Shown here: piece after piece, positions 15,177-62,501 of the stretch
Layout of the letters: every line of letters begins with the position of its first letter
Position numbering within the stretch: position 1 is the stretch's first letter
From: Chloroflexota bacterium
GTDB lineage: Bacteria > Chloroflexota > Dehalococcoidia > Lucifugimonadales > UBA826
Direction of reading: 5' to 3'
DNA length: 64,000 nucleotides
Assembly (NCBI GenBank): GCA_003228105.1
Contig: QGNN01000001.1
Location: forward strand, 6,761 to 70,760
The notes under the pieces: generated by a model
Seen by the model: the letters and a program-made list of their open reading frames with translations, nothing else
Databases searched by the model: none
What the model was told of the DNA's origin: nothing
Translations under genes and position numbers: made by a program

Positions 15177-15215
15177 TAAAACCTAACAGTGGCACTAGAT
15201 GAAATTTGATTAGGT

Positions 15216-16967: not shown

Positions 16968-16988
16968 CAGATCTACTATCTAATTTTG

Positions 16989-17017
16989 TTGATCACCTAC
17001 TCTAGGTGTGCTATATT
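16989..17017 (+). promoter_or_regulatory. putative promoter of infC-rpmI-rplT
   Basis: TTGATC (16989-16994), a 17-nt spacer ending in TGc, then TATATT (17012-17017). Confidence 0.4.
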
Positions 17018-17071
17018 CATTATGGTTCAGTGTATCCACTGGACTATTTATTTTGTACAAGGGGAAGCAAC

Positions 17072-31261: not shown

Positions 31262-31290
31262 GCCACGTCTTGGAAAAAGGTAAATAGATT

Positions 31291-31682: not shown

Positions 31683-33377
31683 ATGATAAAGAAAGGGTCA
31701 CAGATTGTCTGTGAAAGTTTGCTCAGAGAAGGGTGTAACGTTGTTTTCGGAATACCCGGTGGGGCAATTTTGCCTTTATACCAGGCATTACCAGAATATC
31801 CTAAACTCCGCCATATTTTGACGCGACACGAACAAGGCGCTTCTCTAGCAGCTGATGGATACGCTAGGGTCACAGGTAAGCCCGGAGTGGCTTTTGCAAC
31901 ATCGGGTCCAGGGGCTACAAACCTTGTGACAGGAATAGCTTCAGCCCAAATGGATTCCGTACCACTTGTGATTGTAACTGGACAAGTTAATAGCTGGGCT
32001 ATAGGGTCAGATGCCTTTCAGGAAACTGATATCACAGGGATAACCTTGCCTATCACAAAACATAACCTTTTAGTCATGGATGCCTCAGAGATAGCGACTT
32101 CAATCAAAGAAGCATTTTATATAGCAAACTCGGGCAGACCAGGCCCAGTATTAGTAGACATACCTCGGGACGTTTTTGTGCAGGAAGTTGAATATGAGGA
32201 ACCAGGAGAGTTGAATTTACCCGGGTATAGTCCCAATTTCTCCGGGCATTCTGGTCAGATACGAAAGGCTGCTAATTTGATTAATGAATCAGAAAAGCCC
32301 GTTATTGTTGCGGGGCACGGAGTAATAATATCAAAGGCATATGATGAGTTAAAAGCATTGGCTGAAAAGGCTCAGATACCAGTCATTACTACCTTGCTAG
32401 GTATTAGCTGTTTTCCAGAGGACCATGTCTTATGGACTGGCTGGCCGGGCATGCACGGAATGGCATATTCTAGTCTCGCAATCGAGGAAGCGGATCTAAT
32501 TATTGCACTGGGTATGCGCTTTGATGATCGAATAACTGGCAACCCATCTAAGTTTGCTTTGAATTCGAAAAAGATACATATAGATGTTGATCCTTCAGAA
32601 ATCGGAAAAAACATTGCCGTCGATGTGCCTATAGTGGGAGATGTTAAAGAAGTTCTAAACCGAATGAATAATCATGTTGTAAATGCGACCCACCCTACAT
32701 GGTTGAAAAGAATAGATGTCTTGAAGGAGGATCATCCATCTTTGCAGATACCTGAGACCTCTAAATTATTGGCCCGACAGGTAGTCAAAGACATTTCTGA
32801 CGAAACCAGAGGGGGTGCCACGATAGTGACCGGTGTTGGCCAACATCAGATGTGGGCTGCACAGCATTACCGTTTCAAAAAACCTGGTACATTTCTTACT
32901 TCGGGCGGTTTAGGAACGATGGGGTATGAAGTACCTGCCGCCATGGGAGCACAGGTGGCTGACCCTGATTCAACCGTTTGGTCTATTGCCGGTGATGGAG
33001 GCTTTCAAATGACACTTTGCGAATTAGCAACCATTGCCGAAAACAGGCTGCCAGTTAAATTCGCAATACTGAATAATGGATTTTTAGGCATGGTTAGGCA
33101 ATGGCAAGAGATATTTTTCGATAGTTCATATGTTTCAACCGCCTACACGGGCAACCCTGACTTTGTTCGTTTGGCTGAGGCATATGGCATAAAAGGCATC
33201 AGGGTTACGGATAAAACACAGGTAAAAACAGCAATTGCTGAGGCGATGGATCACGATGGCCCTGTATTGGTTGATTTCATAGTGGAACAAGAGGAAAACG
33301 TATATCCCATGATTCCATCAGGCATGACGGTCTTTGACATGATAGAGGAGCCGGTATCGGAGAAGGTAACAACTTGA
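31683..33377 (+). CDS. ilvB: acetolactate synthase large subunit
   Basis: 564 aa ThDP enzyme with GGLGTMGYEVPAAMGA and IAGDGGFQM. RBS AAGGAAG. Confidence 0.9.
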   Translation: MIKKGSQIVCESLLREGCNVVFGIPGGAILPLYQALPEYPKLRHILTRHEQGASLAADGYARVTGKPGVAFATSGPGATNLVTGIASAQMDSVPLVIVTGQVNSWAIGSDAFQETDITGITLPITKHNLLVMDASEIATSIKEAFYIANSGRPGPVLVDIPRDVFVQEVEYEEPGELNLPGYSPNFSGHSGQIRKAANLINESEKPVIVAGHGVIISKAYDELKALAEKAQIPVITTLLGISCFPEDHVLWTGWPGMHGMAYSSLAIEEADLIIALGMRFDDRITGNPSKFALNSKKIHIDVDPSEIGKNIAVDVPIVGDVKEVLNRMNNHVVNATHPTWLKRIDVLKEDHPSLQIPETSKLLARQVVKDISDETRGGATIVTGVGQHQMWAAQHYRFKKPGTFLTSGGLGTMGYEVPAAMGAQVADPDSTVWSIAGDGGFQMTLCELATIAENRLPVKFAILNNGFLGMVRQWQEIFFDSSYVSTAYTGNPDFVRLAEAYGIKGIRVTDKTQVKTAIAEAMDHDGPVLVDFIVEQEENVYPMIPSGMTVFDMIEEPVSEKVTT

Positions 33378-33916
33378 AATCATCAGAAAAACACACAATA
33401 ACAGCATTGGTTGAAGATCGTGCGGGTGTCTTAAACCGCATATCTAGTATGTTCAGGAGACGTGGTTACAACATATCAAGCTTGGCTGTCGGTAAGAGTG
33501 AATCTGCTGGCTTATCTAGAATGACGTTTGTAGTTGATGGGGATGCTAAGACAGTTGAAATGGTTGTTAAGAACCTGCACAAGTTAGTTGAAGTCATTAA
33601 AGTATCCGATATATCTGAAGGAAACGCGGTGTCGCGGGAGCTAGCCTTGATAAGGGTTAAATGCGATGTAACGAGTCGTAGTGAAATAATGCAGATTGTC
33701 GATATATTTAGGGCTAAGATAGTAGACGTCTCGCAGGATACCTTGATCATTGAAGTAACGGGTAATGAGGATAAAGTTAATTCACTCGTGGATTTACTGG
33801 GTAGTTTTGGGGTTTTTGAGGTAATGAGAACTGGCACAGTGGCCATGAGTAGAAGGACGTCCTTTGAGCAAGATAAGCCTGTGAGCAGTCCAACAGTTTT
33901 GGAGAATGCATCTTAA
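33374..33916 (+). CDS. ilvN: acetolactate synthase small (regulatory) subunit
   Basis: 180 aa, ACT domain [29 protein letters not shown]. The TTG start overlaps the ilvB stop. Confidence 0.85.
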
Positions 33917-33945
33917 ATAGAAAATTTTGTACAAGGAGAATTTAT

Positions 33946-34944
33946 ATGGCGAAAATGTATTACGAATCGGATGCAGACATGAGTCTGTTAGAGGGCAAGA
34001 CTGTAGGTATTATTGGGTACGGTAGCCAAGGTCACGCTCATGCGTTAAACCTGAAGGATTCTGGGGTAGATGTATGTGTAGGATTGTACGAAGGTAGTAA
34101 GAGTTGGCCTATAGCAGAATCGGAAGGCCTAAAGGTGGCCACAGTTTCAGAAGCGGCTGCCCTGTCAGACGTTATTATGGTACTGGTTCCTGATCATCTT
34201 CAGGCTTCAGTTTACAATGAATCCATATTACCGCACCTTTTGCCAGGGAAGACTTTAATGTTCGCCCATGGGTTTAATATACATTTTGACGCGATAAATC
34301 CACCTGAAAATGTCGACGTATCCATGGTCGCGCCCAAAGCACCTGGACATAGGATGAGGGAAGTTTATACGAAAGACTCTGGGGTGCCCGGGTTACTTGC
34401 AATCCACCAAGATTCAACTGGAGGTGCTCATGCATTGGGCCTGGCTTACGCAAGAGGTGTAGGTTGTACTAGGGCTGGGGTGCTGGATACTACGTTTAAA
34501 GAAGAGACAGAGACAGATCTTTTTGGTGAGCAGGCTGTTTTATGTGGGGGAGTTGCGGCCTTGGTAAAGGCTGCATTTGAGACTTTGGTAGAGGCAGGGT
34601 ACCAACCAGAATCAGCTTATTTTGAATGTATGCACGAGTTGAAACTTATAGTGGATTTGTTCTATCAAGGCGGTATGGAATACATGAGATACTCTGTGAG
34701 TGATACGGCTGAATATGGAGATTACACTAGAGGACCCGTAGTAGTAGATGAAAATGTGAAAAAAAATATGCGAAAGGTACTGGACCAAATCCAAGATGGT
34801 ACATTTGCGAAAGAATGGATCACGGAAAACGATGAGGGCAGGCCAACATTCAATAGGTTGCGGGAGGAAAATGCCGGTCATCAAATAGAAGAAGTGGGTA
34901 AAGAGCTTAGGGGTATGATGTCCTTTCTCTCTGATCCAGATTAG
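33946..34944 (+). CDS. ilvC: ketol-acid reductoisomerase
   Basis: 332 aa with [17 protein letters not shown] and [11 protein letters not shown]. Confidence 0.95.
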
Positions 34945-35128
34945 GACTGGTTCCATATATGAATAATATGAAATGTAAGTCAATAGACGAGGTATCCTAC
35001 GTAGTTCGCCATGTTGATTTGGTCTTGGTAAGGCTGAATCAGGCGGACTACGGAATCCTGCGAATTTGCAATGGCAATTAATGCAGATGAATCTTTAGTA
35101 ATTCTAGACTAATAAAAAGGAGACCAAA

Positions 35129-36661
35129 ATGTCCCAAGAGAAAGTCACAATTTTTGATACTACCCTTAGAGACGGGGAGCAGTCAGCGGGAATAGGGCTT
35201 ACTACCCAAGAGAAGTTAGAAATCGCGAAACAATTGGAGAGATTAGGAGTTGATGTCATAGAGGCCGGATTCGCCGCGGCATCGCCTGGAGACCTACAGG
35301 CGGTTCAAAAAATCGCCGCAGAGATTAGAACTCCAAAAATAGCTTCTCTTGCAAGGTGTTACATAGACGACGTGGATAAGGCTTGGGAAGGGGTTAAAGG
35401 AGCAGCCAGACCTCGTATTCATGTTTTTATTAGCAGTTCTGACATACAAATAATGAATCAATTGCGCAAGAATCCAGAGGAAGTACTCGATATTGCTGTG
35501 GCCTCGGTTGAGAGGGCGAAAACATATTGTGATGACGTAGAATTTTCTCCCATGGATGCGACTCGGACTGATCCTGAATATTTGTATCAAATGCTGGAAG
35601 CGGTCATACATGCTGGTGCCACCACAGTCAATATAGCGGATACCGTCGGGTACATTATCCCGTCAGAATTTGGAGAAAGAATCGAAGATATCAAAAGAAA
35701 TGTACCCAACATAGATAAAGCCACATTGAGTGTTCACTGCCACAATGACCTTGGTCTTTCTGTAGCTAATAGTTTGGCTGCAGTGAAAGCGGGGGTCAGA
35801 CAGGTCGAAGGGTGCATCAATGGACTTGGCGAACGGGCAGGAAATGCATCGCTTGAAGAGATTATTATGGCTATTGAAACGAGAAACGATTTTTTTGATG
35901 TCTCAACTAATATAGATACCACTCAGATATACAGGACGAGTAGATTGGTGAGTGACATCACGGGCTTCCCAGTACAACCAAACAAGGCGATAGTGGGAGC
36001 TAATGCATTCCGACACGCCTCCGGTATTCATCAGGACGGTGTTTTGAAGGATAGCAGCACCTTCGAAATTATGGATCCTAAATCCATAGGATGGCCAAGC
36101 AACTCATTTGTCTTAGGGAAACTAAGTGGCCGGGCTGGTCTGAGGGCTAGATTAGAAGAACTTGGATTCCGTTTGGAGCAGGTGGAACTCAACGAAGTTT
36201 TTGAATCATTTAAGGAGTTAGCAGACCGTAAGAGAGAGGTCACAGATCAAGACCTTGAGACTCTACTATCAACCAACCGTAGAACTGCGGATATTCCAAC
36301 CGTATATGATCTTGAGCATGTTCAAGTATCTACCGGTGATCATGGCGTACCGACAGCAACAGTGAAAATCAGGAACCCAGAAGGGGAGCAAATTACAGAC
36401 GCAGCTACTGGTACAGGGCCTGTTGACGCGGTGTATATGGCTATAAATCGAGTAATAGGGATAGAGAATAGGCTCACTGAATTTAGAGTTGATTCAGTTA
36501 CGGAAGGAATAGATGCTATCGGAGATGTGACAATCAGAATAGAACTCCAAGGTGATGCCTTTGTAGGCAGAGGTAGCGACACAGACATTATAGTCGCAAG
36601 TGCTAAAGCTTACATGAACGCTCTAAACCGGTCTCTGGCGGTTAATCCCAACGCGGGATAA
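35129..36661 (+). CDS. leuA: 2-isopropylmalate synthase
   Basis: 510 aa with [12 protein letters not shown] and HCHNDLGL plus the C-terminal LeuA dimerisation/regulatory domain. Confidence 0.9.
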
Positions 36662-36725
36662 TTCAAAAACTATTGTTTTTATCCTAAGAAAAATCAAATT
36701 CCTAGAACCCAAAACGGAGTGTTAA

Positions 36726-38126
36726 ATGGTAGCTAAAACCATGTTTGATAAGATATGGGAGGCTCATCTGGTTAAGGAAGCAGAAGGTCAACCCTCACTT
36801 TTATATATAGACCTTCATCTTGTTCACGAAGTTACTTCGCCTCAAGCTTTTGAAGGGCTCAGAATGGCTGAGAGACCTGTAAGGCGTCCAGATTTGACGC
36901 TCGCGGTGGCTGACCACAACACCCCGACGTGGGACCTTTCCCTTCCGATAACAGACCCTATCGCTAAGCAGCAATTGGATGTTCTGACTCAAAACTGTGA
37001 GGAATTTGGAGTGACTCTTCACGATAGATTTAGCCCTTTGCAGGGCATTGTTCATGTTATAGGGCCAGAGCAAGGGCATACTCAACCCGGCAAGACAATC
37101 GTGTGTGGTGACAGCCACACTTCTACACATGGTGCTTTCGGAGCATTTGCTATAGGAATAGGAACATCCGAAGTTGAACACGTGTTGGCTACTCAGACAC
37201 TTAGGCAATTCAAACCGAAAACCATGGAGGTGAGAGTCGAAGGACCTTTGCCATCAGGAGTTTCTGCAAAGGATGTTGTGTTAAGCATAATTGGTGAAAT
37301 TGGCACAGCAGGAGCGACCGGTCATGTAATCGAATATACAGGAGAAGGGATAACCTCTCTGTCGATGGAAGGCCGAATGACTGTGTGCAATATGAGCATC
37401 GAAGCTGGTGCAAGGGCCGGCATGGTAGCACCTGATCAAGTCACATTCGATTATATGAGAGGAAGGGATAATGTCCCACAAGCTGAAGATTTTAAAAAGG
37501 CAGTAAGTGAGTGGAGAAAACTTTCCACTGATGACGACGCAGAATATGACGAGGTGGTCATTATTAAGTCTGAGGATCTAGAGCCTCATGTCAGTTGGGG
37601 TACCAACCCGGGAATGGTAGCTTCGATATCATCCCGAATACCAAGTCCCGATGACTATTCTGATGAAGGAGAAAGAGAGTCTGTTGAAAGAGCCTTAACT
37701 TACATGGACCTGGAACCCGGGACTAGAATACAAGATATACCTGTAGATCGTATTTTTATCGGTTCCTGTACCAATTCAAGAATAGAAGACTTGCGGGCGG
37801 CTGCGCGAGTAGCCGAAGGGAAAAAAGTTAGTGATGCTGTCTATGCTATGGTCGTGCCTGGTTCTAATGCCATAAAACGCCAAGCAGAAGATGAGGGACT
37901 CGACAAAATATTCATAGGAGCTGGGTTTGATTGGAGAGAGGCGGGTTGCTCTATGTGTCTGGGTATGAACCCTGACATATTACAGCCGGGAGAAAGATGC
38001 GCTTCCACTTCAAACAGAAACTTTGAAGGAAGACAGGGCAGGGGAGGCAGAACTCATTTGGTTAGCCCAGAAATGGCGGCAGCAGCAGCGATAGCAGGGC
38101 ATTTCGTTGATATACGTGAATGGTAA
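36726..38126 (+). CDS. leuC: 3-isopropylmalate dehydratase large subunit
   Basis: 466 aa aconitase-family protein with [21 protein letters not shown] and CSMCLGMN. Confidence 0.95.
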
Positions 38127-38150
38127 ATAAAAGAACAAGGAAGAACTAAA

Positions 38151-38765
38151 ATGGAACCTTTCGTTTCCTTAAATGCCAAACTAGCTCCTATTAATAGAGT
38201 TAATGTAGATACTGATCAAATCATTCCGAAACAATTTTTAAAGCGGGTTGAGAGAACAGGATTCGGTCAATTTTTGTTCAACGATTGGAGGTTTATGCCC
38301 GACGGTTCTGAGAATAAAGATTTTATTCTAAATCAAAAAAGATACAGTGCGGCTGAGATACTTGTGAGTGGAAGGAATTTCGGATGTGGTTCCTCTCGCG
38401 AGCACGCCCCGTGGGCCCTGCAAGACTACGGGTTTAAATGTATTATCGCTCCCAGTTTTGGGGATATTTTTTTCAGCAACTGTTTTCAAAATGGTGTTTT
38501 GCCAGTAGTTTTACCTGAAGATACAGTGGCTCAAATAATTGAGAATTCAGAAAATGATCCGGAATATAGGATTAATATAGATTTAGAATCACAAAGGATA
38601 TGGGATGAGAATGAGGAAGTAGTGGCTGAGTTTTCTATTGAACCATTCAGACGTCACTGCATGCTGAACGGACTAGATGATATAGGTCTTACCTTGGAAG
38701 ACGAGACGGATATAGCTGTATTCGAATCTGGGCGTTCGAACCGGGGGGGCATTTTAAGTATCTAG
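38151..38765 (+). CDS. leuD: 3-isopropylmalate dehydratase small subunit
   Basis: 204 aa with GRNFGCGSSREHAPWAL. Confidence 0.9.
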   Translation: MEPFVSLNAKLAPINRVNVDTDQIIPKQFLKRVERTGFGQFLFNDWRFMPDGSENKDFILNQKRYSAAEILVSGRNFGCGSSREHAPWALQDYGFKCIIAPSFGDIFFSNCFQNGVLPVVLPEDTVAQIIENSENDPEYRINIDLESQRIWDENEEVVAEFSIEPFRRHCMLNGLDDIGLTLEDETDIAVFESGRSNRGGILSI

Positions 38766-49676: not shown

Positions 49677-52352
49677 TCAGCCTTTTTCTACGCGTACTTT
49701 ACAGAGTCTCAAACCCTCAATTTTAGCCATCGGATCTGGTTCCGTACTGTTATTCAACGATTCGATTAAAGTGCCGAATAACGTAGTAGTAGCAACCATT
49801 CCTGAATGCAGGCCATTGAGGTGCGCATTGCCGGTTAATTCAAATTTCTCACCTAATATTTTGATTACATCCCCCTCCGAAATACCCGCTTTATTTGCGT
49901 CTTCCTCATTCATTTCGATAATCTCACGTCTTGTGATGGTATTTAAGTCATTTTCCGTAACGATGCCTGCGTCTCGGTCTGCGTCAAAAAGTACCCTACC
50001 AGGTGCAAAAACCATAGGGTATTGATCATCTACCAAGAGTTCCTCTCTTTGTGTGAATTCAATAGGAGAGAAAACATAACTTGAATTCAAGATGGGTTTC
50101 CTGATGTGTCCTTGGGAATCCAGGCTGTCAGCCTCAAGGGTTTTGTAAGTTTCCACCTCGTTTGTTATTTCAATTAGTACATCGTTAGAGGAAGAATAAG
50201 GCAGGTCCTCTGATCCCAATCTTGCGGCTATCTGAGATAGTATTCTCCAATCTTCATCCTCATCACCAACGGGCCCTAATGCCGGCCGAAGTCGGTGTAT
50301 TCTGCCTTCCATATTGGTGTACGTGCCAGTTTTTTCGGTAAAAAGGGCCGAAGGTAATACAACATCTGCTATGTCAGTTACGTCGCTGGCGAAACTTTCA
50401 TGGACTATCAGTAAATTTGTGGCTTTGATTTTGTCTAGAAACTCTGACCGGTTTGCGGTGTTATGAAACAATTCATCCCCGATTAGGTGTAAAGCCTTTA
50501 TAGCTCCAGAGGAGCAGGCCTCAGATATTTCCGTTAGATCTATACCTGGTGAGGCGGTTGGCCTGTGCCCAGGTAACAAGTTAGGTACGCATCCGACATC
50601 TCTAGATCCTTGTTGGTTGGCTCCCGAAAATAGCGGATATATGCCGCCTGAGTTTTTCCCTAAATTTCCGGTAATTAGAGATAAATTAACTAGAGATTTC
50701 ACTGTGTCGTCTATGTGGGTGTCAGATATTGTCTCAAGACCGTATAGGATTGAAGAGGCCTCGGTATTAGCAAATATTTGAGCCATTTCCCGGATCTCTT
50801 CTTGACTTATTCCTGTCCGCTCACTGACCTTCACTAAATCAAAATCCCATAGGGAATTTCGGAATTCATCATAACCTTTACATTTTTCGGTGGCAAAGTC
50901 ATGGTCTTCCAGCGACTGGTCTACTATGCTTCGCAAAATCCCACCTATCAAAATGGGTTCTGAATTTATTAGAGGTCGGATCCATTTTGTGGCATATCTT
51001 GTTAATTCGGTCTCCCGTTGGTCTATTACTATTAATTTGGCGCCTTTGGCCACCGCTTGTTTTATAGGAACGGACGCAACGTTTTGTTCTTCTGTTATGT
51101 TCGCCGACACTAGTAGTATGACTTGTGAATCCAATAGCTCCCATATTTTGTTTGAGGCACAATCATCGCCTATTAAATCCTGCAGAGAATCTACCAGTTT
51201 TGGCCGAGAATTTGAGGAGACGTTTACGTTGTTAGACTTCATCACTCTTCGGGCAAATTTTTGAGCCGCAAAATTGTCCTCATTCGTACCTCTTGCGGAT
51301 GCGATCAAAGCGTAATCACCATTCTTGTGATTCGCTAATTTGCTGGCTACAAAATCTAGTGCCTCGGGCCATGTGACTTCCTCGAGTTCTGAATTTTTGC
51401 GTACCATGGGTTTCTTTAATTTATTTTTGTTGTTAACAAAATCCAACCCGAACTTACCTTTAAAACAGGCCATACCCATATTGGCCTCTGCTTGTCGATT
51501 CGGGATAGACCTCACCACTTTGTTTCGTTTATTGACATCAAGATCTAGTTGGCAACCAACAGGGCAATGAGGGCAAGTCGTAGCAACTTTTTGTACTGCT
51601 TTATCCCACTTGTAATCCCTTTCAACGATTGCTCCGGTGGGGCAGACGTCTATACATGCTCCACAAAATTCGCACCCGGATTCAAGCAAGGAAGTACCAG
51701 CTGCGGTCCCAATTATGCTCCTGCCGGATCTGTCTTTTAAGGTAATCGCTTGATCTCCTCTTACTTCATCACATGCTCTTACGCATCTAGAGCATACGAT
51801 GCATAAATTCATGTCCATATCCCAGTAGGGATCTTTCACCTCCAAAGGAAGATGCCTGTTGTTGTATGTCAGTGGGGTGGTCAACTCCATTTCCATATAT
51901 CTAACAGTGTCTTTTAGCTCACACCTTTCATTTTTTGGACATGTGACACACCGGTCATTCACTGAAACATGTCTAAGGCATACATCAGTGGGACCACAAA
52001 GTTCAATTCTGTGGCAATTCAAACAACCATGCGGATGCTCTGAGATTAGTAGCTCCATGATTCCTTTGCGAAGATCCACTAAATCTCCTGTATTGGTTTC
52101 CACTCTCATTCCTTCAGAGATAGGAGTCGTGCAAGAAGCTGGACTCCCAGGGAGTGCTCTATAACTACCATCTGGAGTAGGGGATTCTGCTTTAACCACG
52201 CACATCCGACAGGCTCCGTAAGGTTTCATTCCTGGGTAGTAACACAGGTATGGTATGTACATTTCGTTATCCATGGCAGCTTGAATTATCATGCTACCTG
52301 GCTCAGCCTGTATTTCTACTCCATCTATCGTGAGATTAACTTTGTCTGACAT
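49677..52352 (-). CDS. NuoG/FdhA-like molybdopterin-oxidoreductase-fold Fe-S subunit
   Basis: 891 aa with N-terminal 2Fe-2S, HPHGCLNCHRIELC (Hx3Cx2Cx5C), two ferredoxin-type 4Fe-4S motifs and CPHCPVGC. The MGD-fold body lacks a Cys/Sec-His dyad where FdhF has it (aa ~364-395, QKFARRVMKSNNVNVSSNSRPKLVDSL). Confidence 0.75.
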   Translation of the reverse strand: MSDKVNLTIDGVEIQAEPGSMIIQAAMDNEMYIPYLCYYPGMKPYGACRMCVVKAESPTPDGSYRALPGSPASCTTPISEGMRVETNTGDLVDLRKGIMELLISEHPHGCLNCHRIELCGPTDVCLRHVSVNDRCVTCPKNERCELKDTVRYMEMELTTPLTYNNRHLPLEVKDPYWDMDMNLCIVCSRCVRACDEVRGDQAITLKDRSGRSIIGTAAGTSLLESGCEFCGACIDVCPTGAIVERDYKWDKAVQKVATTCPHCPVGCQLDLDVNKRNKVVRSIPNRQAEANMGMACFKGKFGLDFVNNKNKLKKPMVRKNSELEEVTWPEALDFVASKLANHKNGDYALIASARGTNEDNFAAQKFARRVMKSNNVNVSSNSRPKLVDSLQDLIGDDCASNKIWELLDSQVILLVSANITEEQNVASVPIKQAVAKGAKLIVIDQRETELTRYATKWIRPLINSEPILIGGILRSIVDQSLEDHDFATEKCKGYDEFRNSLWDFDLVKVSERTGISQEEIREMAQIFANTEASSILYGLETISDTHIDDTVKSLVNLSLITGNLGKNSGGIYPLFSGANQQGSRDVGCVPNLLPGHRPTASPGIDLTEISEACSSGAIKALHLIGDELFHNTANRSEFLDKIKATNLLIVHESFASDVTDIADVVLPSALFTEKTGTYTNMEGRIHRLRPALGPVGDEDEDWRILSQIAARLGSEDLPYSSSNDVLIEITNEVETYKTLEADSLDSQGHIRKPILNSSYVFSPIEFTQREELLVDDQYPMVFAPGRVLFDADRDAGIVTENDLNTITRREIIEMNEEDANKAGISEGDVIKILGEKFELTGNAHLNGLHSGMVATTTLFGTLIESLNNSTEPDPMAKIEGLRLCKVRVEKG

Positions 52353-54661: not shown

Positions 54662-55981
54662 TCATTTGTTTTTGAGATTTGATAAAGCCAAATGGGCCAT
54701 TTTACGACCCATTGCAACACTGTAATTAGTACCTCTGTCTTGTGGATAAACCTGAGAGGTATTGGCTAAATACAAGTTTTGAATTCCAGTCTGGTGAGCT
54801 GGAATATTTTTGCCGTAATTTGTGTCAACTACTGGTTGAGCGTTGGGTATTTTATGGTGATGGTATTCCTTCACCCATTCGACTGTGAAATCTGGGTTTA
54901 TTTTTTTTAAATGAGGTAGGTAACTATCAAATAATTCACTTCCATCCATTTTGTATAACTCATGATCCTCAGATAAATAATTAGACAAATACACTATATG
55001 GGTGTTCCCATACCTTTCCGATCCCACCAAGTTTGTGTGCTCGATTAATCCAATGAAAGGAATAGATCGGTCAGCTATGTTGAGCCAGTAAACATCAGAC
55101 AAGGGATATTCTAGTACTAGAATAATAAGAACTGCCGCCATATATTTTACATTTAAAAGCTTAGAGCGGTATTCGTTTGATAGACCTTCTGCCAAGCGGT
55201 TAAAAACGTGAGATGGTGTGGAGGAGATGACTGCATCGAAGGCTTCTTCTTTTTCTTGTGGCCCAATAGTCATCAAAACCTCTCCAGAATTCGAACCTCG
55301 GATTCTTTTTATTTGGGTGGATAAAAAAATTTCTGCCGAATTTAACTCACATGTTTTAGCCAATTGGCCGAAAAAATGAGAGAAACTTCCGTTTGGATAC
55401 CCTAAGACTTCTTTAGTAAAAATGTTTTTTCTGGATGCAAATCGAGTGGTCATTTTTCCCCAAATCCATGCCATGCTGATTTTGTCGTGGTTTTCCTCCC
55501 CGAATTTACCTCTTAGCATTGGCTCCCAAAATGCAGCATAAATTTTTATATTCGTATTTCTGATCAGCCATTCTTTCGCGGATATGGATTCGAGTTTTTG
55601 CCACTCTTTTATATACCGTATCTGTAATGACGATATCCCCATCTTTATTCGATCAATAACCCCTAGCGGCTTGTATTTCATCAAATCAAAGGGGCTCAGA
55701 AATTTATATATTTCCCCATCCTGAAACGTTCCAACACTGGATGGAAACCATTTAATAGTTTCTTCGAGGCCGATTTCAGCCATCAGGGAAATAATATCTG
55801 TGTCATTTGTAAACCAGTGGTGATACCCCTTTTCCAGCTCGCTCCCAGCCACTTGGAATGTGGAGGCATGTCCTCCTATAAAATCAGCGGCTTCATATAT
55901 TTTTACCTTATGACCTTTTGATGAAAGATCGTAAGCAGCTGCTAACCCTGTCGCTCCAGCTCCTATAATCCCAAATTTCAT
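54662..55981 (-). CDS. NAD(P)/FAD-dependent oxidoreductase (amine oxidase / phytoene desaturase-like)
   Basis: 439 aa with the N-terminal Rossmann motif MKFGIIGAGATGLAAAYDL...YEA..FIGGH. Confidence 0.6.
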   Translation of the reverse strand: MKFGIIGAGATGLAAAYDLSSKGHKVKIYEAADFIGGHASTFQVAGSELEKGYHHWFTNDTDIISLMAEIGLEETIKWFPSSVGTFQDGEIYKFLSPFDLMKYKPLGVIDRIKMGISSLQIRYIKEWQKLESISAKEWLIRNTNIKIYAAFWEPMLRGKFGEENHDKISMAWIWGKMTTRFASRKNIFTKEVLGYPNGSFSHFFGQLAKTCELNSAEIFLSTQIKRIRGSNSGEVLMTIGPQEKEEAFDAVISSTPSHVFNRLAEGLSNEYRSKLLNVKYMAAVLIILVLEYPLSDVYWLNIADRSIPFIGLIEHTNLVGSERYGNTHIVYLSNYLSEDHELYKMDGSELFDSYLPHLKKINPDFTVEWVKEYHHHKIPNAQPVVDTNYGKNIPAHQTGIQNLYLANTSQVYPQDRGTNYSVAMGRKMAHLALSNLKNK

Positions 55982-56014
55982 GCAATACCTTTATTGATTA
56001 AACCTTCGTAATAT

Positions 56015-57043
56015 TTATATTTCATGACGAAGTTTTCTTAAAGAAAGACCCTCTGCCCATAGAAATAATTGGCCTAAAAGTACTATAGGCACCATTAGGC
56101 ATAGGTGAGTAAGGGTAGCAAAAGCTGCGGCTTCCGATCGGCTAACACTTGTGGGCTCAATTACCATAAGTGTTTCACGGGCTATCATTTCGAACAAACC
56201 TATTCCACCTGGCATCGACGGTATAGATGCCCCAATGTTTGTTATGGCAGTGATACTGACCGATGAGGCAAAAATGTGCCCTAAACTGGAATTGATAGGT
56301 AGGATCCCGAGACTTACTAAAACAGTATGGAATAATACTGCTTCAAGTATCCAAATAGGTAAAGATAGTAACAAGGCTTTGCAGGTTATTTTCCAATTCC
56401 TTAAGGAGTATAGGCCTTTTACTACATCTTCTGTAAGGTGATTTATATTACGGGCCAAATTTCTGGGAAGCCGAGAGGTTAATTGGCCAAAGATAACCAT
56501 GGACCTTGGCCCATTAAGTGCAATAGCTATCAATAAACCAAATAGGATTGCGAACGGAGAGGTGAAAATTACGAGTAAGAATGTTTCGTCTAGTTTGGTG
56601 ATTTGAGATAGTCTTGAAAAAATCGCATCAAACGGTACAGACATAGATGACCCTGCGAGAATAAATATAAGGGCTAGACCATCCATAATACGTTCTACAA
56701 AGATCGTGCTTAATGCTGTTGCAGTCGGAACCCCTTCCTTATTTTTTAGATAATATCCTCTTATCAATTCCCCTAGTCTAAAGGGGAGAATATTGTTTGC
56801 CATATATCCAATTATAACTATAGGAAACAGGGTTCGAATTTTAATTTCATCTATTCCGGAAAGAAGTACTTGCCATCTCCATGTTCGGAACCACACACCC
56901 AAAAAGTATGCCAAAATTCCAGGGACAATAACTAAGTAGTTTGCCTTTTTGAAAGTGTTCCATATTTCACCAATATCAATAGTGAGGGCGAATATTATTA
57001 ACAATGATATCCCTGTAAATACCCACAATGAAGACTTTTTCAA
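56015..57043 (-). CDS. flippase-like / lysylphosphatidylglycerol-synthase TM-region (UPF0104) membrane protein
   Basis: 342 aa, about 8 TM segments, with FRTWRWQVLL and NNILPFRLGELIRGYYL signature stretches. Confidence 0.6.
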   Translation of the reverse strand: MKKSSLWVFTGISLLIIFALTIDIGEIWNTFKKANYLVIVPGILAYFLGVWFRTWRWQVLLSGIDEIKIRTLFPIVIIGYMANNILPFRLGELIRGYYLKNKEGVPTATALSTIFVERIMDGLALIFILAGSSMSVPFDAIFSRLSQITKLDETFLLVIFTSPFAILFGLLIAIALNGPRSMVIFGQLTSRLPRNLARNINHLTEDVVKGLYSLRNWKITCKALLLSLPIWILEAVLFHTVLVSLGILPINSSLGHIFASSVSITAITNIGASIPSMPGGIGLFEMIARETLMVIEPTSVSRSEAAAFATLTHLCLMVPIVLLGQLFLWAEGLSLRKLRHEI

Positions 57044-57083
57044 ATCCTGTCCTTATATCTGGTGATTCTTTTTAACTGGAGCC

Positions 57084-59264
57084 CTACTCTCGGTAACTGT
57101 CTCCGACAAAATCTATATTTGGGAAAGTATTGCTAGTATAGATGTATGCGTCCTCACTTCCGATGCTTTTACCTACTCCTTTTCTAAATAACCAATACTC
57201 CAAAAATATATTCCAATGTTTAGTATCTGTAAGTTTGGTAACTAAATTGATAGCATTAAGATCCCTATATGTATGTTCTGGAAACCACCACCTGTGAGGT
57301 ATTTTTCCAACCTTTTTGTAATTTTTAGATAAAGCCTTGTCCGCAGCGAGATGGTTGGAGGAATGGACGACAACAATTGAAGCTTGTTCGTGAGGTTCAT
57401 ATGATTCCGATTGCAATTTAGGATATTTAACGTTGGTATAATTTCTCAAGTACCAAGACCAAGGCCATGTGAATCCGTTAGTTTGATCAATGATGATCAA
57501 TGGCTCGTTGTCCGTTGCGGGTTTTACATATAATGTCTTTATTTTATTGTTGATCTGAAGTAAATCTGGGGAAGTTTGAGTGTATACCAGCATTTCAATG
57601 GGAATATCAGAGTTTACAAAATTCGTGTAAATAGTTGTACGAATGGTTAGTAAAAGAAGTATCGTGGCAAAACCAGCATACAAATATTTTACAAGGATGT
57701 GGGTCTCGTAACGTTGAATAAACCTCACTACCAATACAAAACCAGCAAGGAATAGTGAAAGCATTATTGTTGCAGCAAACACCCTTGGTATTGGGTGCAG
57801 GTTGGAAGAGTATTTAGTAACACTAAAAGCGATTATTAGCGATATTGTTGGAACGAAATAAATCATGCATTGGTTTAAGTTAGGCTTCGATTTAAAGCTG
57901 GATTTACTAAATAAGTCCCCTAAAAATTTCCCAGAAAGCACTATGAGTGGTAAAGATATATTTACGAGTAACCATGGCATTTTCTCGCTTGCAATCGTGT
58001 AGAGGAATAGAGTTATTACAGTCCAATAAATCAGAAATAAATTAAACTTGGTGCGATGCTTCAGAAAATATAGAGATGCTAGTACTGAAAAAATTGCTGG
58101 TAGATATTCGTATATTGGAATAAGAGTTAGGTAATAATGTGTGGGTTGACCTCCCCGAGCCTCCCCTTGTTGCACTATCCAATAACCCAATGATTGCCAT
58201 ATACCAGATTGCACACCGTTGAAAATATTGGTGAAGAAAGTGGTGTAAGCGGACAACCATATTAAATAAAAAATGACGGCACATTTCCACCAAGTTTTCC
58301 AGTGCCATTTGTACCCAATGTACATAGATCCGACTATTAGAGAAAAAACCACTAGAAAGGCCAGTAATTTGCCACCGTGGGTCGGCATTCCTATATTGGA
58401 GGCACCCTCCCCAGAAACTAGAATGATATTAGACCATCTTAGTAATATGGTTTCTTGAAAGATACCGGTGAAGGCCGACCATTGAGGGAGTGTTAATGAA
58501 ATCAAAACTATCAATACCGTGAATGCTCGGCTGTGCGGATGAGTATATACGGAATTCCTAAGGGTTTTGAAGGTCATCAGGGCGTAACCGAAGACTAAAC
58601 GAGGATAGGATAGGTTTGGGAATTGGTCTCTGTAATTTTTTCTTGGCCACGATTCGTGTATGGAACTCAATGTTAAATACAATCCCAAAGTTCCGACGAG
58701 CAAATAAGCATTTTCTTTAGTTGAAAAACTTAAGGCTAGAAGGGCAGACATCAAATAAAGATTCTTTTTATTGCCGGATACAAGGTATTTCCACATGGTG
58801 ATGACCATGCCAAAAGTAAAAACCGCCATAAGTATGTCATTTCGAGCAAACCTGCTGAAATAAACCATGGAAGGGGATATGGATAATAAGATAGAGACCA
58901 TTATTGCCCCATGTTTGCCGAGCAGATCCCTAAAGAAGATGGGTAGGATGACTAGAATCGTTCCAGCGGCAACATAGAGGATTCGGGCAGTTACGTCAGT
59001 GTCTCCAAAAAGGAAAAAAATTAAGGATGTCAACTGCATTTGCAATGGACCGTGTAGCATAGGGTTATGTGTTAAACCAGATCCTTGATATAACTCCCAA
59101 GAGTAATATGCATGGAGACTTTCGTCATGGTGCATGGCTCTGGCATCCAGATCGTAAATTCGGAGCAACAAAGCAACAGTAAACAGACAGCAATATAACA
59201 ACCACTCTATCCGAGTTAGTTTTGAAATTTCCCTAATATGGAAGTAATTGCGGATATATTTCAA
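57084..59264 (-). CDS. TIGR03663-family GT-C-like membrane protein (PMT/ArnT-related N-terminus)
   Basis: 726 aa polytopic protein. The DE dipeptide and HGP tripeptide (MHHDESLHAYYSWELYQGSGLTHNPMLHGP, 59046-59126) fit the family description. The TTG start overlaps the stop of the upstream YYY gene. Confidence 0.7.
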   Translation of the reverse strand: MKYIRNYFHIREISKLTRIEWLLYCCLFTVALLLRIYDLDARAMHHDESLHAYYSWELYQGSGLTHNPMLHGPLQMQLTSLIFFLFGDTDVTARILYVAAGTILVILPIFFRDLLGKHGAIMVSILLSISPSMVYFSRFARNDILMAVFTFGMVITMWKYLVSGNKKNLYLMSALLALSFSTKENAYLLVGTLGLYLTLSSIHESWPRKNYRDQFPNLSYPRLVFGYALMTFKTLRNSVYTHPHSRAFTVLIVLISLTLPQWSAFTGIFQETILLRWSNIILVSGEGASNIGMPTHGGKLLAFLVVFSLIVGSMYIGYKWHWKTWWKCAVIFYLIWLSAYTTFFTNIFNGVQSGIWQSLGYWIVQQGEARGGQPTHYYLTLIPIYEYLPAIFSVLASLYFLKHRTKFNLFLIYWTVITLFLYTIASEKMPWLLVNISLPLIVLSGKFLGDLFSKSSFKSKPNLNQCMIYFVPTISLIIAFSVTKYSSNLHPIPRVFAATIMLSLFLAGFVLVVRFIQRYETHILVKYLYAGFATILLLLTIRTTIYTNFVNSDIPIEMLVYTQTSPDLLQINNKIKTLYVKPATDNEPLIIIDQTNGFTWPWSWYLRNYTNVKYPKLQSESYEPHEQASIVVVHSSNHLAADKALSKNYKKVGKIPHRWWFPEHTYRDLNAINLVTKLTDTKHWNIFLEYWLFRKGVGKSIGSEDAYIYTSNTFPNIDFVGDSYRE

Positions 59265-61552
59265 CGGTCAATCTCAAAAATTGCAGCACTACCTATATTT
59301 CCAAACACCAATGTGCCGAGAGATTGGAATTTCTCTAATTGTGTAGAGGTATAACGAGTCATTTCAAGATTACCGACATAAATGAAACTAATGTCATATT
59401 TTTCCAATAATGATTTTGCTTGTGCAAGGTCCTCAGTAGAATATATCGTCTCTACGTCTGCGGCTCTTTGATATATATCAGGATTAGAATTTCGCCATTG
59501 ACTTTCATGGCCCGGCCAGTTTACTAAATTTGGGATACCGGTATTTCGGGAGATAAATCCGGAACTGTCCCATTCACCGACGGATTCTAGTATTACCTGG
59601 TTAAGACTTATGTTTTGTTTGGCGTAATTAAGAGCCGATGCCTCTAAACCTGTTGGCTTTACGCTCGAATTTTTAAAGCCTGAAATACTAGATTCGTTAA
59701 TTTTAGTCATAGTGGCAGCTGGGGGATAGTAGAAGGCACATAAAATAATTATGCCGGCAATAAATGTATAAATATATTTGAGAAATTTTTGAGGCCGTAT
59801 ATATCCGGCTAGCCAATAATATGCCGAGTAGCTTCCACAGATTGATAGTAGTATCCAAGCTGGGTAGTAGAGCTTGAAAACTGTGTTCATGCGATTTCCA
59901 TATACGTCTCCGACGTAAAAAAGTTCTGGTATCAATATCAGAAACATTGATAAAGAGAAAAGCGAAAGAACTAGGCTTCTATCGCTTAGTCCCTCTCTGG
60001 CTGTCAGAGTTAACAAAGTCAACATGGAAATGAAACATAAAATAGTTACAGGGAAAGCAAAACCAATCATGCTAGGCCCATCAGAATTAATACTGGCTTC
60101 AGGGATCAAAAACCTTATCAACCAAGGTGTGCTGACTACTGCAAAGGAAATACTCACGTGGTATTTCCAAGCTGTACTGATAGGGGTTGTCCAAAAAGTG
60201 CTCACTATTTTAGGGATTGAAAGTATTAATAAAGGACCCCATATCACGAAACCATGGGTAATCGATGTTTGATATTGAGTCCTTGCTAACCCATCTATGT
60301 CTGACTGAAAAGACGACAGGTAAGGCAGAAGCACAAGCCCACCTATGACGAATATCAATGAAGTAGATTGCGCTAATTTAATCGGATTAAGAGCGGTATT
60401 TGAAAGCCAATGCAGGCCATATACCCCAAAAATTATGGCTATGCAGATAGGGGCTGTCCACATATTGATAAAACTCACACACCCTAACATTACTCCTGCC
60501 AATGCAACTTCCAGCCAATACGTTACCCCAAGGGGTTTGGTTAAGTCTTTTTTGGATAAATCATAAGCAATGTATATAAAAGCCAATAAAAATGGTGTGA
60601 CCATAACGTGCGGATGAAGATCTCCGAGAAGATAGCTAAAGAAAGGGAACTCATTGATGGTGTAATCAAATCCCTGGCCCTCACATGCGGGACCAAAATA
60701 GTTGATTATTCTTGAACTCCTAAACCACCACCAAAATTCAGTTGGTCTCCAGCTGTCTATCGTATTGATTACTGGATTTTGCATTCCATCGATGCAAACT
60801 CGTTGCCAAAAGCTGGATGATCCAATTGAATTAATTCTTAAAAACTCTAAAAAACCCTGTAAATTTCCCATGAAGACTGCTGTGAGTGATGCAATCACAC
60901 CGCATGAAATTGTGAGGAAATCGAATTTCATGCGGGAGAATTTTAAAAGTATTGAAGTTAGTGCAAATACTGAAGACGCGGTCATCGCAGGTATTGCAAC
61001 CACCGAGAGATTATATGTGGCTACCGTTGGAATTAATGAAATTTTCGATAGTGTGCCAAATATCCAATAACCAAAATAATAATAACTGATGGTGCCACCA
61101 TAGAACCAAGGGTCAAGAGGCTGGCCGATGAAGGTTCTTGCCGATGAATTTAAAAAAGCGAAATCCATCGGTTGTTCTGTGTGATTTATGCCGGGGTCAA
61201 AGTATCTAATGCTAAAAAAAATTAGGTAGGTTAATAGGAACGTTAATTCTGTTAAAGAAATTATTCGCCAATTAGTTCTCACAATTTGTTTTAAGGCATT
61301 AGCTCGAATTGTGCCAATAATTAAAGAACATATAATTAACCCTATAAAAAACAGTATCGTTGTAATTTCGGTGGCCGGAATTATTTCGGAAATTGAAATT
61401 AACCATGTCGCGAGAGACAGGCATATGATGCCAAGGGGTTTGCTGATGGAATAACCCTTATCAGGTATCGTTCTAAAGATACTGAGAAAAATTACAAATG
61501 TGGCAAATCCCACAACCTCTATTAAAAGCAGCCATGTTATGCCGTACAACAT
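59261..61552 (-). CDS. Chlor_Arch_YYY (TIGR03662 / DUF2298) polytopic membrane protein
   Basis: 763 aa, strongly hydrophobic. The YYYFG motif is encoded at 61070-61084 (TAT TAT TAT TTT GGT on the minus strand), within GGTISYYYFGYWIFG. Confidence 0.75.
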   Translation of the reverse strand: MLYGITWLLLIEVVGFATFVIFLSIFRTIPDKGYSISKPLGIICLSLATWLISISEIIPATEITTILFFIGLIICSLIIGTIRANALKQIVRTNWRIISLTELTFLLTYLIFFSIRYFDPGINHTEQPMDFAFLNSSARTFIGQPLDPWFYGGTISYYYFGYWIFGTLSKISLIPTVATYNLSVVAIPAMTASSVFALTSILLKFSRMKFDFLTISCGVIASLTAVFMGNLQGFLEFLRINSIGSSSFWQRVCIDGMQNPVINTIDSWRPTEFWWWFRSSRIINYFGPACEGQGFDYTINEFPFFSYLLGDLHPHVMVTPFLLAFIYIAYDLSKKDLTKPLGVTYWLEVALAGVMLGCVSFINMWTAPICIAIIFGVYGLHWLSNTALNPIKLAQSTSLIFVIGGLVLLPYLSSFQSDIDGLARTQYQTSITHGFVIWGPLLILSIPKIVSTFWTTPISTAWKYHVSISFAVVSTPWLIRFLIPEASINSDGPSMIGFAFPVTILCFISMLTLLTLTAREGLSDRSLVLSLFSLSMFLILIPELFYVGDVYGNRMNTVFKLYYPAWILLSICGSYSAYYWLAGYIRPQKFLKYIYTFIAGIIILCAFYYPPAATMTKINESSISGFKNSSVKPTGLEASALNYAKQNISLNQVILESVGEWDSSGFISRNTGIPNLVNWPGHESQWRNSNPDIYQRAADVETIYSTEDLAQAKSLLEKYDISFIYVGNLEMTRYTSTQLEKFQSLGTLVFGNIGSAAIFEIDR

Positions 61553-61577: not shown

Positions 61578-62501
61578 TTAGTCTATGATCCCAGAAATAA
61601 ATAAATCGGGATCGAAAACTGCAATGTCATCAGGCTGTTCCCCAGTCCCGACGAACCATATGGGGATTTTTAATTGATCAGCAATAGCTATTGCTATACC
61701 ACCTTTAGCAGTCCCATCTAATTTACTGAGGAATATTCCATCGGGGTTCACAAATCTTGTGAATTCAACAGCTTGAATTAGACCGTTTTGCCCAGTAGTA
61801 CCATCTATTACGAGGATAATTTTCACTGAGGATTCATCAGACTCCCTGATGATTATTTTTGATATTTTCTTGAGTTCTTCCATTAGATTAGATTTGCCTT
61901 GGAGCCTACCTGCAGTGTCGATGATGGCAACATCCATATTTCTACTTTTGGCGGCATGGATAGTGTCAAAAGCCACGGCCCCTGGGTCTGATCCTGGATC
62001 TTGAGCAATAACGGTAACCCCCAGCCTTTCCCCCCAAATTTGTATCTGGTCTACAGCTGCTGCACGAAAGGTGTCAGCGGCACCCAGTATTACCCTTTGA
62101 TTCAGACTTGTGAGTAAATGAGTCAATTTTGCTATCGATGTCGTTTTGCCTGCCCCATTCACACCGACCATAACGAAAACAGCCGGCTTCTGAGCACTAG
62201 CAAGGGGATCTTTGTCACTGAGGTCAAATATTTGCAACAATTCACTTCGGAGTTCCCTCAAACATTCTTTACCGGAGGATATGTTTTTTGCTTTTGCGTT
62301 TTCTTTGAGCCGGATAGCTATTTTTTCAGAGGTTTCTATTCCAATATCCGCCGAAATCAATGTATCTTGTAGATCCTCCCAGAATTCAGAATCCAATTCA
62401 GAATGTTTGAACAGGTCTCCCAGTTGGCCAAGTAAACTGACGCGAGTTTTTTCAAGAGATTCCCTTAATTTGGCAGGGTTTCTTTTTTTTAAAATGTTCA
62501 T
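61578..62501 (-). CDS. ftsY: signal recognition particle receptor FtsY
   Basis: 307 aa NG domain with GVNGAGKTTSIAKL, DTAGR and SKLDGTAKGG. Confidence 0.9.
   Translation of the reverse strand: MNILKKRNPAKLRESLEKTRVSLLGQLGDLFKHSELDSEFWEDLQDTLISADIGIETSEKIAIRLKENAKAKNISSGKECLRELRSELLQIFDLSDKDPLASAQKPAVFVMVGVNGAGKTTSIAKLTHLLTSLNQRVILGAADTFRAAAVDQIQIWGERLGVTVIAQDPGSDPGAVAFDTIHAAKSRNMDVAIIDTAGRLQGKSNLMEELKKISKIIIRESDESSVKIILVIDGTTGQNGLIQAVEFTRFVNPDGIFLSKLDGTAKGGIAIAIADQLKIPIWFVGTGEQPDDIAVFDPDLFISGIID

Follow-up and report, generated by a model that had tools for sequence, protein, structure and literature searches.

A conserved four-gene membrane module of Dehalococcoidia with two predicted GT-C proteins: a candidate system for extracytoplasmic glycosylation

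One paradigm of extracytoplasmic glycosylation is the three-component system, in which a lipid-phosphate-sugar donor, a flippase and a transferase of the glycosyltransferase C (GT-C) type act together. It is exemplified by GtrA/GtrB/Gtr* in O-antigen glucosylation, by the PPRibose synthase, MATE flippase and GT136 of Citrobacter and by the mycobacterial UbiA-DprE1/E2-Rv3789-Aft/Emb pathway (PMC11127046). Here, we describe four genes on the minus strand at positions 54662-61552 of a 64,000-nucleotide stretch of the genome of a marine Chloroflexota bacterium (SAR202/Dehalococcoidia; assembly GCA_003228105.1, contig QGNN01000001.1, positions 6,761 to 70,760), which is referred to as the window. 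They encode a protein of the Chlor_Arch_YYY family (TIGR03662/DUF2298, in the following YYY), an Agl23-like protein (TIGR03663), a flippase-like protein of the UPF0104 family and a flavoenzyme of the NF005560 family. The family memberships, the GT-C folds of the two large proteins as modelled, their outward conserved motifs and the conserved linkage of the genes are established here. We read the four genes as the membrane and outer-face part of a pathway of the above type and put the probability of this reading at about 0.6; what is said below on catalysis, on donor and acceptor and on the order of events is proposed.

The YYY gene (59261-61552, 763 amino acids, ATG start) is followed by the Agl23-like gene (57084-59264, 726 amino acids, TTG start), the UPF0104 gene (56015-57043, 342 amino acids, TTG start) and the flavoenzyme gene (54662-55981, 439 amino acids, ATG start). 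A preliminary description had called the genes tightly packed and co-directional, and the listing of open reading frames (ORFs) agrees with spacings of -4, 40 and 33 nucleotides. As had been noted, the start codon of the Agl23-like gene (59264-59262) and the TGA stop codon of YYY (59263-59261) overlap, the junction reading cgTTGA; in the closest relatives the alignment downstream of YYY begins exactly at the YYY stop. Searches with the hidden Markov models (HMMs) TIGR03662, TIGR03663 and PF03706, which are among those named in that description, all gave scores above the curated cut-offs, and the family matches of the four proteins are far beyond chance.

Like the three-component systems (PMC11127046), the module would follow a lipid-phosphate-sugar logic and combine a flippase-like membrane protein of small or medium size with a transferase of GT-C fold whose active site faces outward. 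A further shared trait would be auxiliary tailoring of the donor by redox enzymes or epimerases, with NF005560 genes lying inside proteobacterial UbiA/DprE1-like/GtrA operons. There are also clear differences. The cluster encodes no donor synthase, it holds two GT-C proteins that are unrelated in sequence instead of one, and its flippase candidate is of the UPF0104/MprF type, not GtrA/SMR or MATE. By sequence, the two GT-C proteins stand outside the characterised CAZy-type families and are known here from genes and models. Furthermore, unlike the Gtr, Arn, decaprenyl-phosphate-arabinose (DPA) and GT136 systems, the module includes an NF005560 flavoenzyme.

The YYY protein matches TIGR03662 with 404.2 bits (cut-off 300.25) over residues 5-750 and PF10060 (DUF2298) with 306 bits (cut-off 27.8). 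It is strongly hydrophobic, with about 16 transmembrane helices, and carries the family signature YYYFG (Y157-G161) at 61070-61084 of the minus strand, so that coordinates and HMM both agree with the family assignment made earlier. With 9042 clusters at 50% identity, 4147 of them with E <= 1e-30, the family is large and no minor oddity. The AlphaFold2 model of YYY, built from 62 homologues, reaches a predicted local distance difference test (pLDDT) score of 89.6 and a predicted TM-score (pTM) of 0.93. It has 16 transmembrane helices with the N-terminus outside (Lys and Arg are distributed 13 to 4 between the membrane faces); three extra helices and a 13-helix GT-C core are followed by an extracytoplasmic C-terminal alpha/beta domain (about residues 607-763). 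In a Foldseek comparison with the PDB, the best 11 matches are all GT-C enzymes, with CeDPY19 at the top (E 1.3e-6) followed by AglB, STT3A, AftA and Pmt4, and GT-C enzymes account for all 10 matches with E <= 1e-3. The first match outside this class has E 0.04 and a probability of 0.23, and no transporter fold was matched better than E 0.04 by this model or by that of the Agl23-like protein. Judged by its model, YYY is most likely a GT-C-fold protein.

The conservation pattern of YYY was taken from an alignment of 18 diverse family members with identities as low as 25%. The invariant set comprises E126, D147, W149, Y157, Y158, G161, R281, I299, E301, D311, H313, H315, D549, R554, N556 and K560, all of which lie on the outer face according to the modelled helices and the positive-inside count. 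The first extracytoplasmic loop of the core (residues 119-175, after the helix equated with core TM1) is also the first large outward loop and contains E126-Q-P-M-D130 (61163-61177, minus strand), in which the invariant E126 and D130, conserved in at least 90%, are candidate catalytic acids; Y157, Y158 and G161 of the family signature are in the same loop. The second large outward loop carries T298-I-N-E301...D311-L-H313-P-H315 (60608-60661, minus strand) before a transmembrane helix, with I299, E301, D311, H313 and H315 invariant, and may bind a metal or the substrate. A basic and polar cluster, R554-M-N-T-V-F-K560 (59873-59893, minus strand), lies where a late transmembrane helix reaches the outer face and has R554, N556, T557, F559 and K560 invariant. 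Arg and Lys serve as phosphate ligands in GT-C enzymes, and by this analogy the cluster is a candidate lipid-phosphate binding site. A further invariant residue, D31, sits in a short loop that is cytoplasmic by the positive-inside count. An active site that opens outward and contains a centre binding metal or phosphate would be expected to gather invariant residues on the outer face in this way, and a catalytic role is proposed for them.

The same model invites a more specific interpretation, in which YYY is an oligosaccharyltransferase (OST)-like enzyme that glycosylates S-layer or other surface proteins as a sequence-unrelated analogue of AglB/STT3/PglB, while the Agl23-like protein supplies or trims the donor. 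The 13-helix core with an extracytoplasmic C-terminal domain after three extra helices corresponds to STT3/AglB architecture, and OST enzymes are among the best structural matches of both large proteins, AglB and STT3A among those of YYY. The C-terminal domain of YYY matches the C-terminal globular domain of AglB-S2 (3vu0: probability 1.0, TMt 0.55, E ~0.1), outward acidic and His motifs are present, the invariant D-x-H stands directly before a transmembrane helix, and family members fused to TPR domains exist. Such domains are also found with GT-C enzymes that modify proteins, for example TMTC. By contrast, neither YYY nor the Agl23-like protein contains WWDYG or WWD, and YYY has no sequence similarity to STT3 and no match to its Pfam model at E 10. 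The TIxE-like string T298-I-N-E301 sits in the second outward core loop, whereas the TIXE/SVSE of OSTs is found in external loop 5; the fifth outward loop of YYY (483-498) has no invariant residue and lies in the least confident stretch of the model (pLDDT ~70). Membership of YYY in the STT3/AglB/PglB family itself is ruled out by these sequence features, and the three extra N-terminal helices and the outside N-terminus set it apart as well. DPY19 and AftA match the model equally well, the C-terminal domain resembles that of AglB only weakly, and relatives are found in loci of polysaccharide type, next to Wzy_C, GT4 and PA14. The OST-like role is therefore held to be unlikely, and we return to YYY as one of two GT-C-fold proteins of a surface-directed pathway.

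The second of these, the Agl23-like protein, matches TIGR03663 with 247.3 bits (cut-off 126.25) in two stretches, the best of which places residues 25-194 on positions 5-174 of the 435-position model. An N-terminal match to PMT_2 has 47.8 bits; the protein stays below family level for PMT (PF02366). The TIGRFAMs description of the family names an invariant DE, an HGP and two Arg near the N-terminus together with an N-terminal likeness to PMT. In the window protein, H45-H-D47-E48-S...H71-G-P73 lies in the first outward loop (59046-59126, minus strand; DE at 59121-59126, HGP at 59046-59054), and D47, E48, H71, G72, P73, R94, R138 and R141 are the same in all 68 homologues. The invariance of DE and HGP and the PMT/ArnT-like N-terminus had both been proposed before and are confirmed by these numbers. 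As in PMTs, the DE pair stands early in the first outward loop, which is where GT-C enzymes of the PMT type carry their catalytic DE. The AlphaFold model (pLDDT 84.2, pTM 0.88), read together with the positive-inside count, has a cytoplasmic N-terminus, the first outward loop at residues 37-94 with both motifs and an outward C-terminal domain at about 551-726. The first 33 PDB matches in Foldseek are all GT-C enzymes (STT3A, AglB, ArnT with TMt 0.56, Pmt4, PglB, ALG9/ALG12 and EmbA-C), as are 18 of 18 with E <= 1e-3; a sequence relative of this protein was not found in the PDB. Its C-terminal domain differs from that of PMT-type enzymes, and YYY, with CeDPY19 as its closest structure, has no PMT-type sequence signal. 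Both large proteins thus model as GT-C enzymes, which is the outcome that the preliminary description had anticipated over transporter folds.

The statement that TIGR03663 is of unknown function, in contrast, is outdated at the family level, as NCBIfam now names it 'flippase activity-associated protein Agl23'. For the Agl23 of Haloarcula hispanica, flipping of hexose-P-dolichol had been suggested earlier (Lu et al. 2020); the protein also rescues yeast rft1-delta, and in purified form it translocates M5GN2-PP-Dol/Phy and M3GN2-PP-Phy in liposomes (PMC11182771). Transferred to the window, this would give a division of labour in which the Agl23-like protein is a translocator only, YYY is the sole transferase and the UPF0104 protein has a separate lipid job. 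The family name and the rescue and liposome data speak for it. The window protein passes the TIGR03663 cut-off and has the DE/HGP/Arg signature and the PMT_2-like N-terminus in common with haloarchaeal Agl23. However, it also has a GT-C fold and an invariant outward DE typical of PMT-type catalysis, and the flippase activity has been demonstrated for the Haloarcula protein only. Only some 180 N-terminal residues are common to both: BLASTP gives 28-33% identity confined to ~160-185 N-terminal residues, while beyond residue ~190, past the N-terminal third, matches are weak and sub-significant (best E 0.06). The window protein has 726 amino acids compared to ~570-645 in haloarchaea, and in the precomputed annotations PF26681 (Agl23_C) is assigned to 120 of the 120 haloarchaeal proteins listed and to 0 of the 120 Chloroflexi homologues listed.

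Gene context also differs. In six haloarchaeal loci, no YYY, UPF0104 or NF005560 gene was found near Agl23, and an amine-oxidase gene near the Agl23 of Haladaptatus was rejected as an orthologue of the window flavoenzyme. In three haloarchaeal chromosomes (L085, L091 and L092), Agl23 is flanked by genes for a 6,7-dimethyl-8-ribityllumazine (DMRL) synthase and an aminotransferase on one side and by purK-purE and then a nuo operon on the other; glycosylation genes are not adjacent to it in these chromosomes. On the Halogeometricum plasmid pHBOR02, by contrast, the Agl23 gene overlaps a GtrA gene, which is the classic pairing of a GT-C transferase with a small flippase, as in Gtr-type systems, and parallels the pairing of the Agl23-like and UPF0104 genes. 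A dedicated flippase-like partner would be redundant if Agl23 itself were the flippase. Because of the GT-C fold, the outward DE motif and this pairing, we consider a transferase role of the Agl23-like protein, perhaps besides lipid scrambling, no less likely than a role as flippase only, and the flippase annotation should not pass uncritically to such a divergent member. A division of labour as in Haloarcula is accordingly a minority possibility, though one to be kept in mind, and a transferase role within the proposed glycosylation pathway is preferred for this protein.

The third protein was correctly assigned to UPF0104/LPG-synthase-TM in the preliminary description. It matches PF03706 (LPG_synthase_TM) with 146 bits (cut-off 33.4) over its full length, residues 11-324 corresponding to positions 6-302 of the model, and TIGR00374 (flippase-like domain) with 76.2 bits (cut-off 43.2); a sequence relative in the PDB was not found. 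UPF0104 is the family of the MprF flippase domain and of E. coli YbhN-type proteins. Unlike MprF, the window protein is without a synthase domain and is linked to GT-C genes, not to aminoacyl-lipid synthesis. To our knowledge, flipping of a polyprenyl-phosphate sugar has not been documented for the UPF0104 family.

This kinship opens the possibility that the module remodels membrane lipids in the outer leaflet by adding a sugar or head group, as ArnT does with lipid A or MprF with phosphatidylglycerol. No single structure fits the Agl23-like protein better than ArnT (5f15, TMt 0.56), and the order of a DegT aminotransferase, a GT2 and an NF005560 gene in Embleya recalls the Arn pathway, where the likeness is to ArnB and ArnC. 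Both GT-C proteins, however, have sizeable extracytoplasmic C-terminal domains, no lipid-synthesis genes are linked, and the NHL, PA14 and TPR domains and Wzy_C and GT4 neighbours of relatives fit polymer or protein acceptors better. Lipid remodelling is improbable on this evidence; the transfer of sugars to a surface glycan remains the preferred function.

The fourth protein had been described as a Rossmann FAD (flavin adenine dinucleotide) oxidoreductase. This part stands: the dinucleotide-binding motif GAGATG is found at the N-terminus (residues 7-12; 55946-55963, minus strand), and the soluble protein has Amino_oxidase (100 bits) and NAD_binding_8 domains and the amine-oxidase/phytoene-desaturase fold. 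It is not a generic enzyme, however, as it matches the equivalog model NF005560 (PRK07233) with 474.1 bits (cut-off 252) over residues 1-435, a family that recurs beside polyprenyl-phosphate-sugar genes. HpnE (94.7 bits against a cut-off of 283), CrtI (crtI_fam, 37 against 238) and PPOX (proto_IX_ox, 42 against 98) were rejected as identities, and so was UDP-galactopyranose mutase, with no match to the GLF Pfam model and matches to mutase structures only at E 2e-5 to 2e-4. Sequence matches in the PDB are weak.

Full-length homologues of the flavoenzyme occur in eight plasmid or chromid records, and the four that were scored all belong to NF005560 (460-548 bits). On plasmids of Rhodobacteraceae, Burkholderia, Agrobacterium and Rhizobium (L087 to L090), the gene is part of an operon of UbiA, an FAD-binding oxidoreductase (DprE1-like), a short-chain dehydrogenase/reductase (DprE2-like), an epimerase-dehydratase, NF005560 and GtrA. 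Gene sets of this UbiA/DprE1-like/DprE2-like/GtrA type stand for synthesis of a decaprenyl-phosphate-arabinose-type donor and its flippase (PMC11127046). In Embleya (L086), the NF005560 gene overlaps a 325-amino-acid GT2 gene that itself comes after the DegT aminotransferase gene. Taken together with the window, these contexts link NF005560 to lipid-phosphate-sugar pathways in three phyla and suggest an extra redox step in the synthesis of polyprenyl-phosphate pentose or hexose donors.

Conservation of the module was analysed in 80 related loci from species-representative genomes, all of which are Dehalococcoidia or SAR202; 66 of them are informative, as their sequence extends 7.5 kb or more beyond YYY on the downstream side. 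The full order of YYY, Agl23-like, UPF0104 and flavoenzyme genes on one strand is found in 47 of these 66. The Agl23-like gene adjoins YYY in 54, and the UPF0104 gene comes after the Agl23-like gene in 48, namely in the 47 complete modules and in one more. The closest relatives of both large proteins are from Dehalococcoidia or SAR202 metagenome-assembled genomes, including a YYY protein with 94% identity in a locus (L001) that is collinear with the window from the LysR gene through the formate-dehydrogenase-like gene. Some modules are interrupted by DNA that encodes IS605 OrfB, a DDE transposase, a Uma2-family protein, a weak match to the AAA_16 ATPase, molybdopterin oxidoreductases and one extra PMT_2 protein; apart from the fact that the module tolerates them, such insertions are uninformative on function. 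The extra PMT_2-type gene (379 amino acids) lies between YYY and the Agl23-like gene at 12348-13487 of locus L022. Two of the loci in which YYY stands alone (L046 and L060) were discarded as a functional clue, the context being unrelated genes.

With all 80 loci from one lineage, many of them also sharing the ftsY, LysR and Nuo/Fdh-like flanks, and with YYY alone in 12 of the 66, the four genes might be neighbours by shared ancestry only, without a joint function. Yet the module persists where the flanks change: it is retained in 23 loci without the downstream Nuo-like genes and in 13 with an inverted ftsY. An independent link of NF005560 to lipid-sugar genes, the existence of fusion proteins and the repeated clustering of YYY, Agl23-like and flippase-like genes in genomes of 61-72% GC, compared to ~40-45% in the window, likewise speak against mere common descent, which is disfavoured as a very improbable explanation. 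The synteny that the preliminary description had called for is thus present throughout much of the class, with partial re-clustering in distant genomes.

The distant loci (L094 to L097) were reached through an exhaustive search of the DUF2298 family. A metagenomic contig with 72% GC (L097) has the genes for FtsY, YYY (28% identical) and an Agl23-like protein in this order with overlapping coding regions. Locus L094 (61% GC) combines PMT_2, UPF0104, GT4 and methyltransferase genes with a 2434-amino-acid fusion of PMT_2 and two YYY domains (8001-15305), a third YYY gene and a 1011-amino-acid Agl23-like protein with NHL, which shares 29% identity with its window counterpart over 704 residues. In L096, genes for GT4, GtrA and Wzy_C face a 1507-amino-acid PMT_2+YYY fusion (4464-8987), followed by YYY and four more PMT_2-type genes, some with NHL or PA14, while L095 encodes a 2744-amino-acid protein of two YYY domains and TPR (9001-17235) and then another YYY. 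Fusions of PMT_2 with two YYY domains are known at 2434 and 2445 amino acids, and arrays of up to six GT-C genes hold YYY fusions, with NHL or PA14 domains in some members. A plasmid-borne DUF2298 gene of Pseudobutyrivibrio (26% identical over 98% of the length) lies within a polysaccharide locus that also contains two GT2 genes, an O-antigen-ligase-family gene, DegT and an NDP-sugar epimerase/dehydratase. YYY, Agl23-like and flippase-like (UPF0104 or GtrA) genes therefore cluster again and again in varied orders, and this together with the fusions speaks for a functional, probably physical, partnership as well as a surface-glycan context. A surface glycopolymer or the glycan of a glycoprotein is favoured as acceptor over a membrane lipid because the distant relatives lie in multi-GT-C arrays with Wzy_C, GT4 and NHL/PA14/TPR.

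A lipid-linked glycan transfer system acting on the envelope, as suggested in the preliminary description, is thus supported by HMMs, synteny and GT-C models, and a tentative order of events can be proposed. Polyprenyl phosphate would be loaded with a sugar in the cytoplasm by a synthase encoded elsewhere in the genome. The NF005560 flavoenzyme may then oxidise or otherwise tailor the donor in its sugar or lipid part, as its gene context suggests. Transport of the donor into the outer leaflet would fall to the UPF0104 protein, perhaps with assistance from the Agl23-like protein, a step modelled on the family and on the experiments with Haloarcula Agl23. Finally, YYY and the Agl23-like protein, probably as a pair or complex, would transfer one or more sugars to the envelope acceptor.

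Several observations weigh against this proposal. The sole experimentally studied member of TIGR03663 acts as a flippase, not as a transferase, and the haloarchaeal Agl23 genes are unlinked to the other three genes of the module. The synteny data are drawn mostly from a single bacterial class, within which YYY occurs without its three partners in the 12 loci mentioned above. Searches (tblastn) with GT2, GtrA and UbiA queries detected no polyprenyl-phosphate sugar synthase (GT2/UbiA) or GtrA gene in the window and the 80 loci. For YYY, the structural matches have modest TM-scores of 0.3-0.45, four family members gave no Pfam GT-C match even at E 10, and no sequence match was found in the PDB. 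As YYY is without sequence similarity to any glycosyltransferase family, its GT-C assignment derives from the predicted structure. Sequence homology between YYY and the Agl23-like protein is also ruled out by an hhalign probability of 3%, so that the two are related at fold level only. The putative catalytic residues of both proteins were picked by conservation and topology, not by superposition, and the role proposed for the flavoenzyme is read from gene context.

The boundaries of the transcription unit are less clear than the module itself. Upstream of YYY, at a distance of 25 nucleotides and on the same minus strand, lies ftsY (61578-62501; TIGR00064, 322 bits), encoding the signal recognition particle (SRP) receptor, which is considered here as context only and is possibly co-transcribed with the module. 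It adjoins YYY in most Dehalococcoidia loci, is inverted in 14 and is also next to YYY in L097. The adjacency of ftsY and YYY predates the other flanking genes that the loci share. Downstream, a NuoE/NuoF/formate-dehydrogenase-like set begins on the same strand 65 nucleotides after the flavoenzyme gene, and the four genes are thus part of a longer co-directional run that extends to both sides. Promoter and terminator scans around the module gave counts at or below the expectation from shuffled sequences, for which reason operon limits could not be set. One operon of the four genes is plausible; of the earlier claim, the tight co-directional packing stands, while boundaries of its own do not.

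The formate-dehydrogenase-like gene directly downstream of the module (49677-52352, minus strand) encodes a molybdopterin protein, and its neighbours encode NuoE- and NuoF-like subunits and a NAD-binding protein of the FNR type. A gene for the selenocysteine elongation factor SelB is found at 2094-3983 of the plus strand; the formate-dehydrogenase-like gene has no in-frame stop and therefore appears not to use selenocysteine. Elsewhere in the window, a T-box leader on the plus strand (31286-31590; RF00230, 99.8 bits) precedes ORFs at 31683-38765 of the same strand, which encode a thiamine pyrophosphate (TPP) enzyme resembling acetolactate synthase, the products of two further ORFs, a LeuA-like protein and aconitase-type LeuC/LeuD-like proteins; together they look like a T-box-controlled ilv-leu operon. 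Two plus-strand ORFs of 928 (11644-14430) and 435 amino acids (7535-8842) have no Pfam match at E 1e-6, and the longer one directly follows the gene of a 762-amino-acid protein with two stretches of similarity to CoA-transferase family III.

The pairing of TIGR03662 with TIGR03663 is already noted in the TIGRFAMs family descriptions. The searchable literature contains only two mentions of DUF2298, neither more than passing, and no description of its GT-C fold, its invariant outward residues, the four-gene module of SAR202, the fusion architectures or the link to NF005560. With a confident predicted fold, outward invariant residues as candidate active site and conserved partners, DUF2298 now has a testable glycosyltransferase hypothesis. 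For the NF005560 family, the findings provide a tie to polyprenyl-phosphate-sugar pathways in three phyla. For Agl23, the GT-C fold, the catalytic-type DE motif and the pairing with flippase-like genes mean that flippase activity may not be the sole or native function.

The envelopes of SAR202 and other Dehalococcoidia are poorly known, and the module points to a conserved envelope-decorating system in these bacteria. A bolder and rather speculative extension would be that DUF2298/YYY is an unrecognised, sequence-orphan class of GT-C enzymes with OST architecture that forms, with an Agl23-type partner to which it is sometimes fused (2400 amino acids), a two-enzyme surface-glycan machine in Chloroflexota, several Archaea and some Firmicutes, with NF005560 making a novel polyprenyl-phosphate sugar donor. 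If true, this would mean that the abundant SAR202 bacteria of the deep ocean possess a second, AglB-independent surface glycosylation system of archaeal type.

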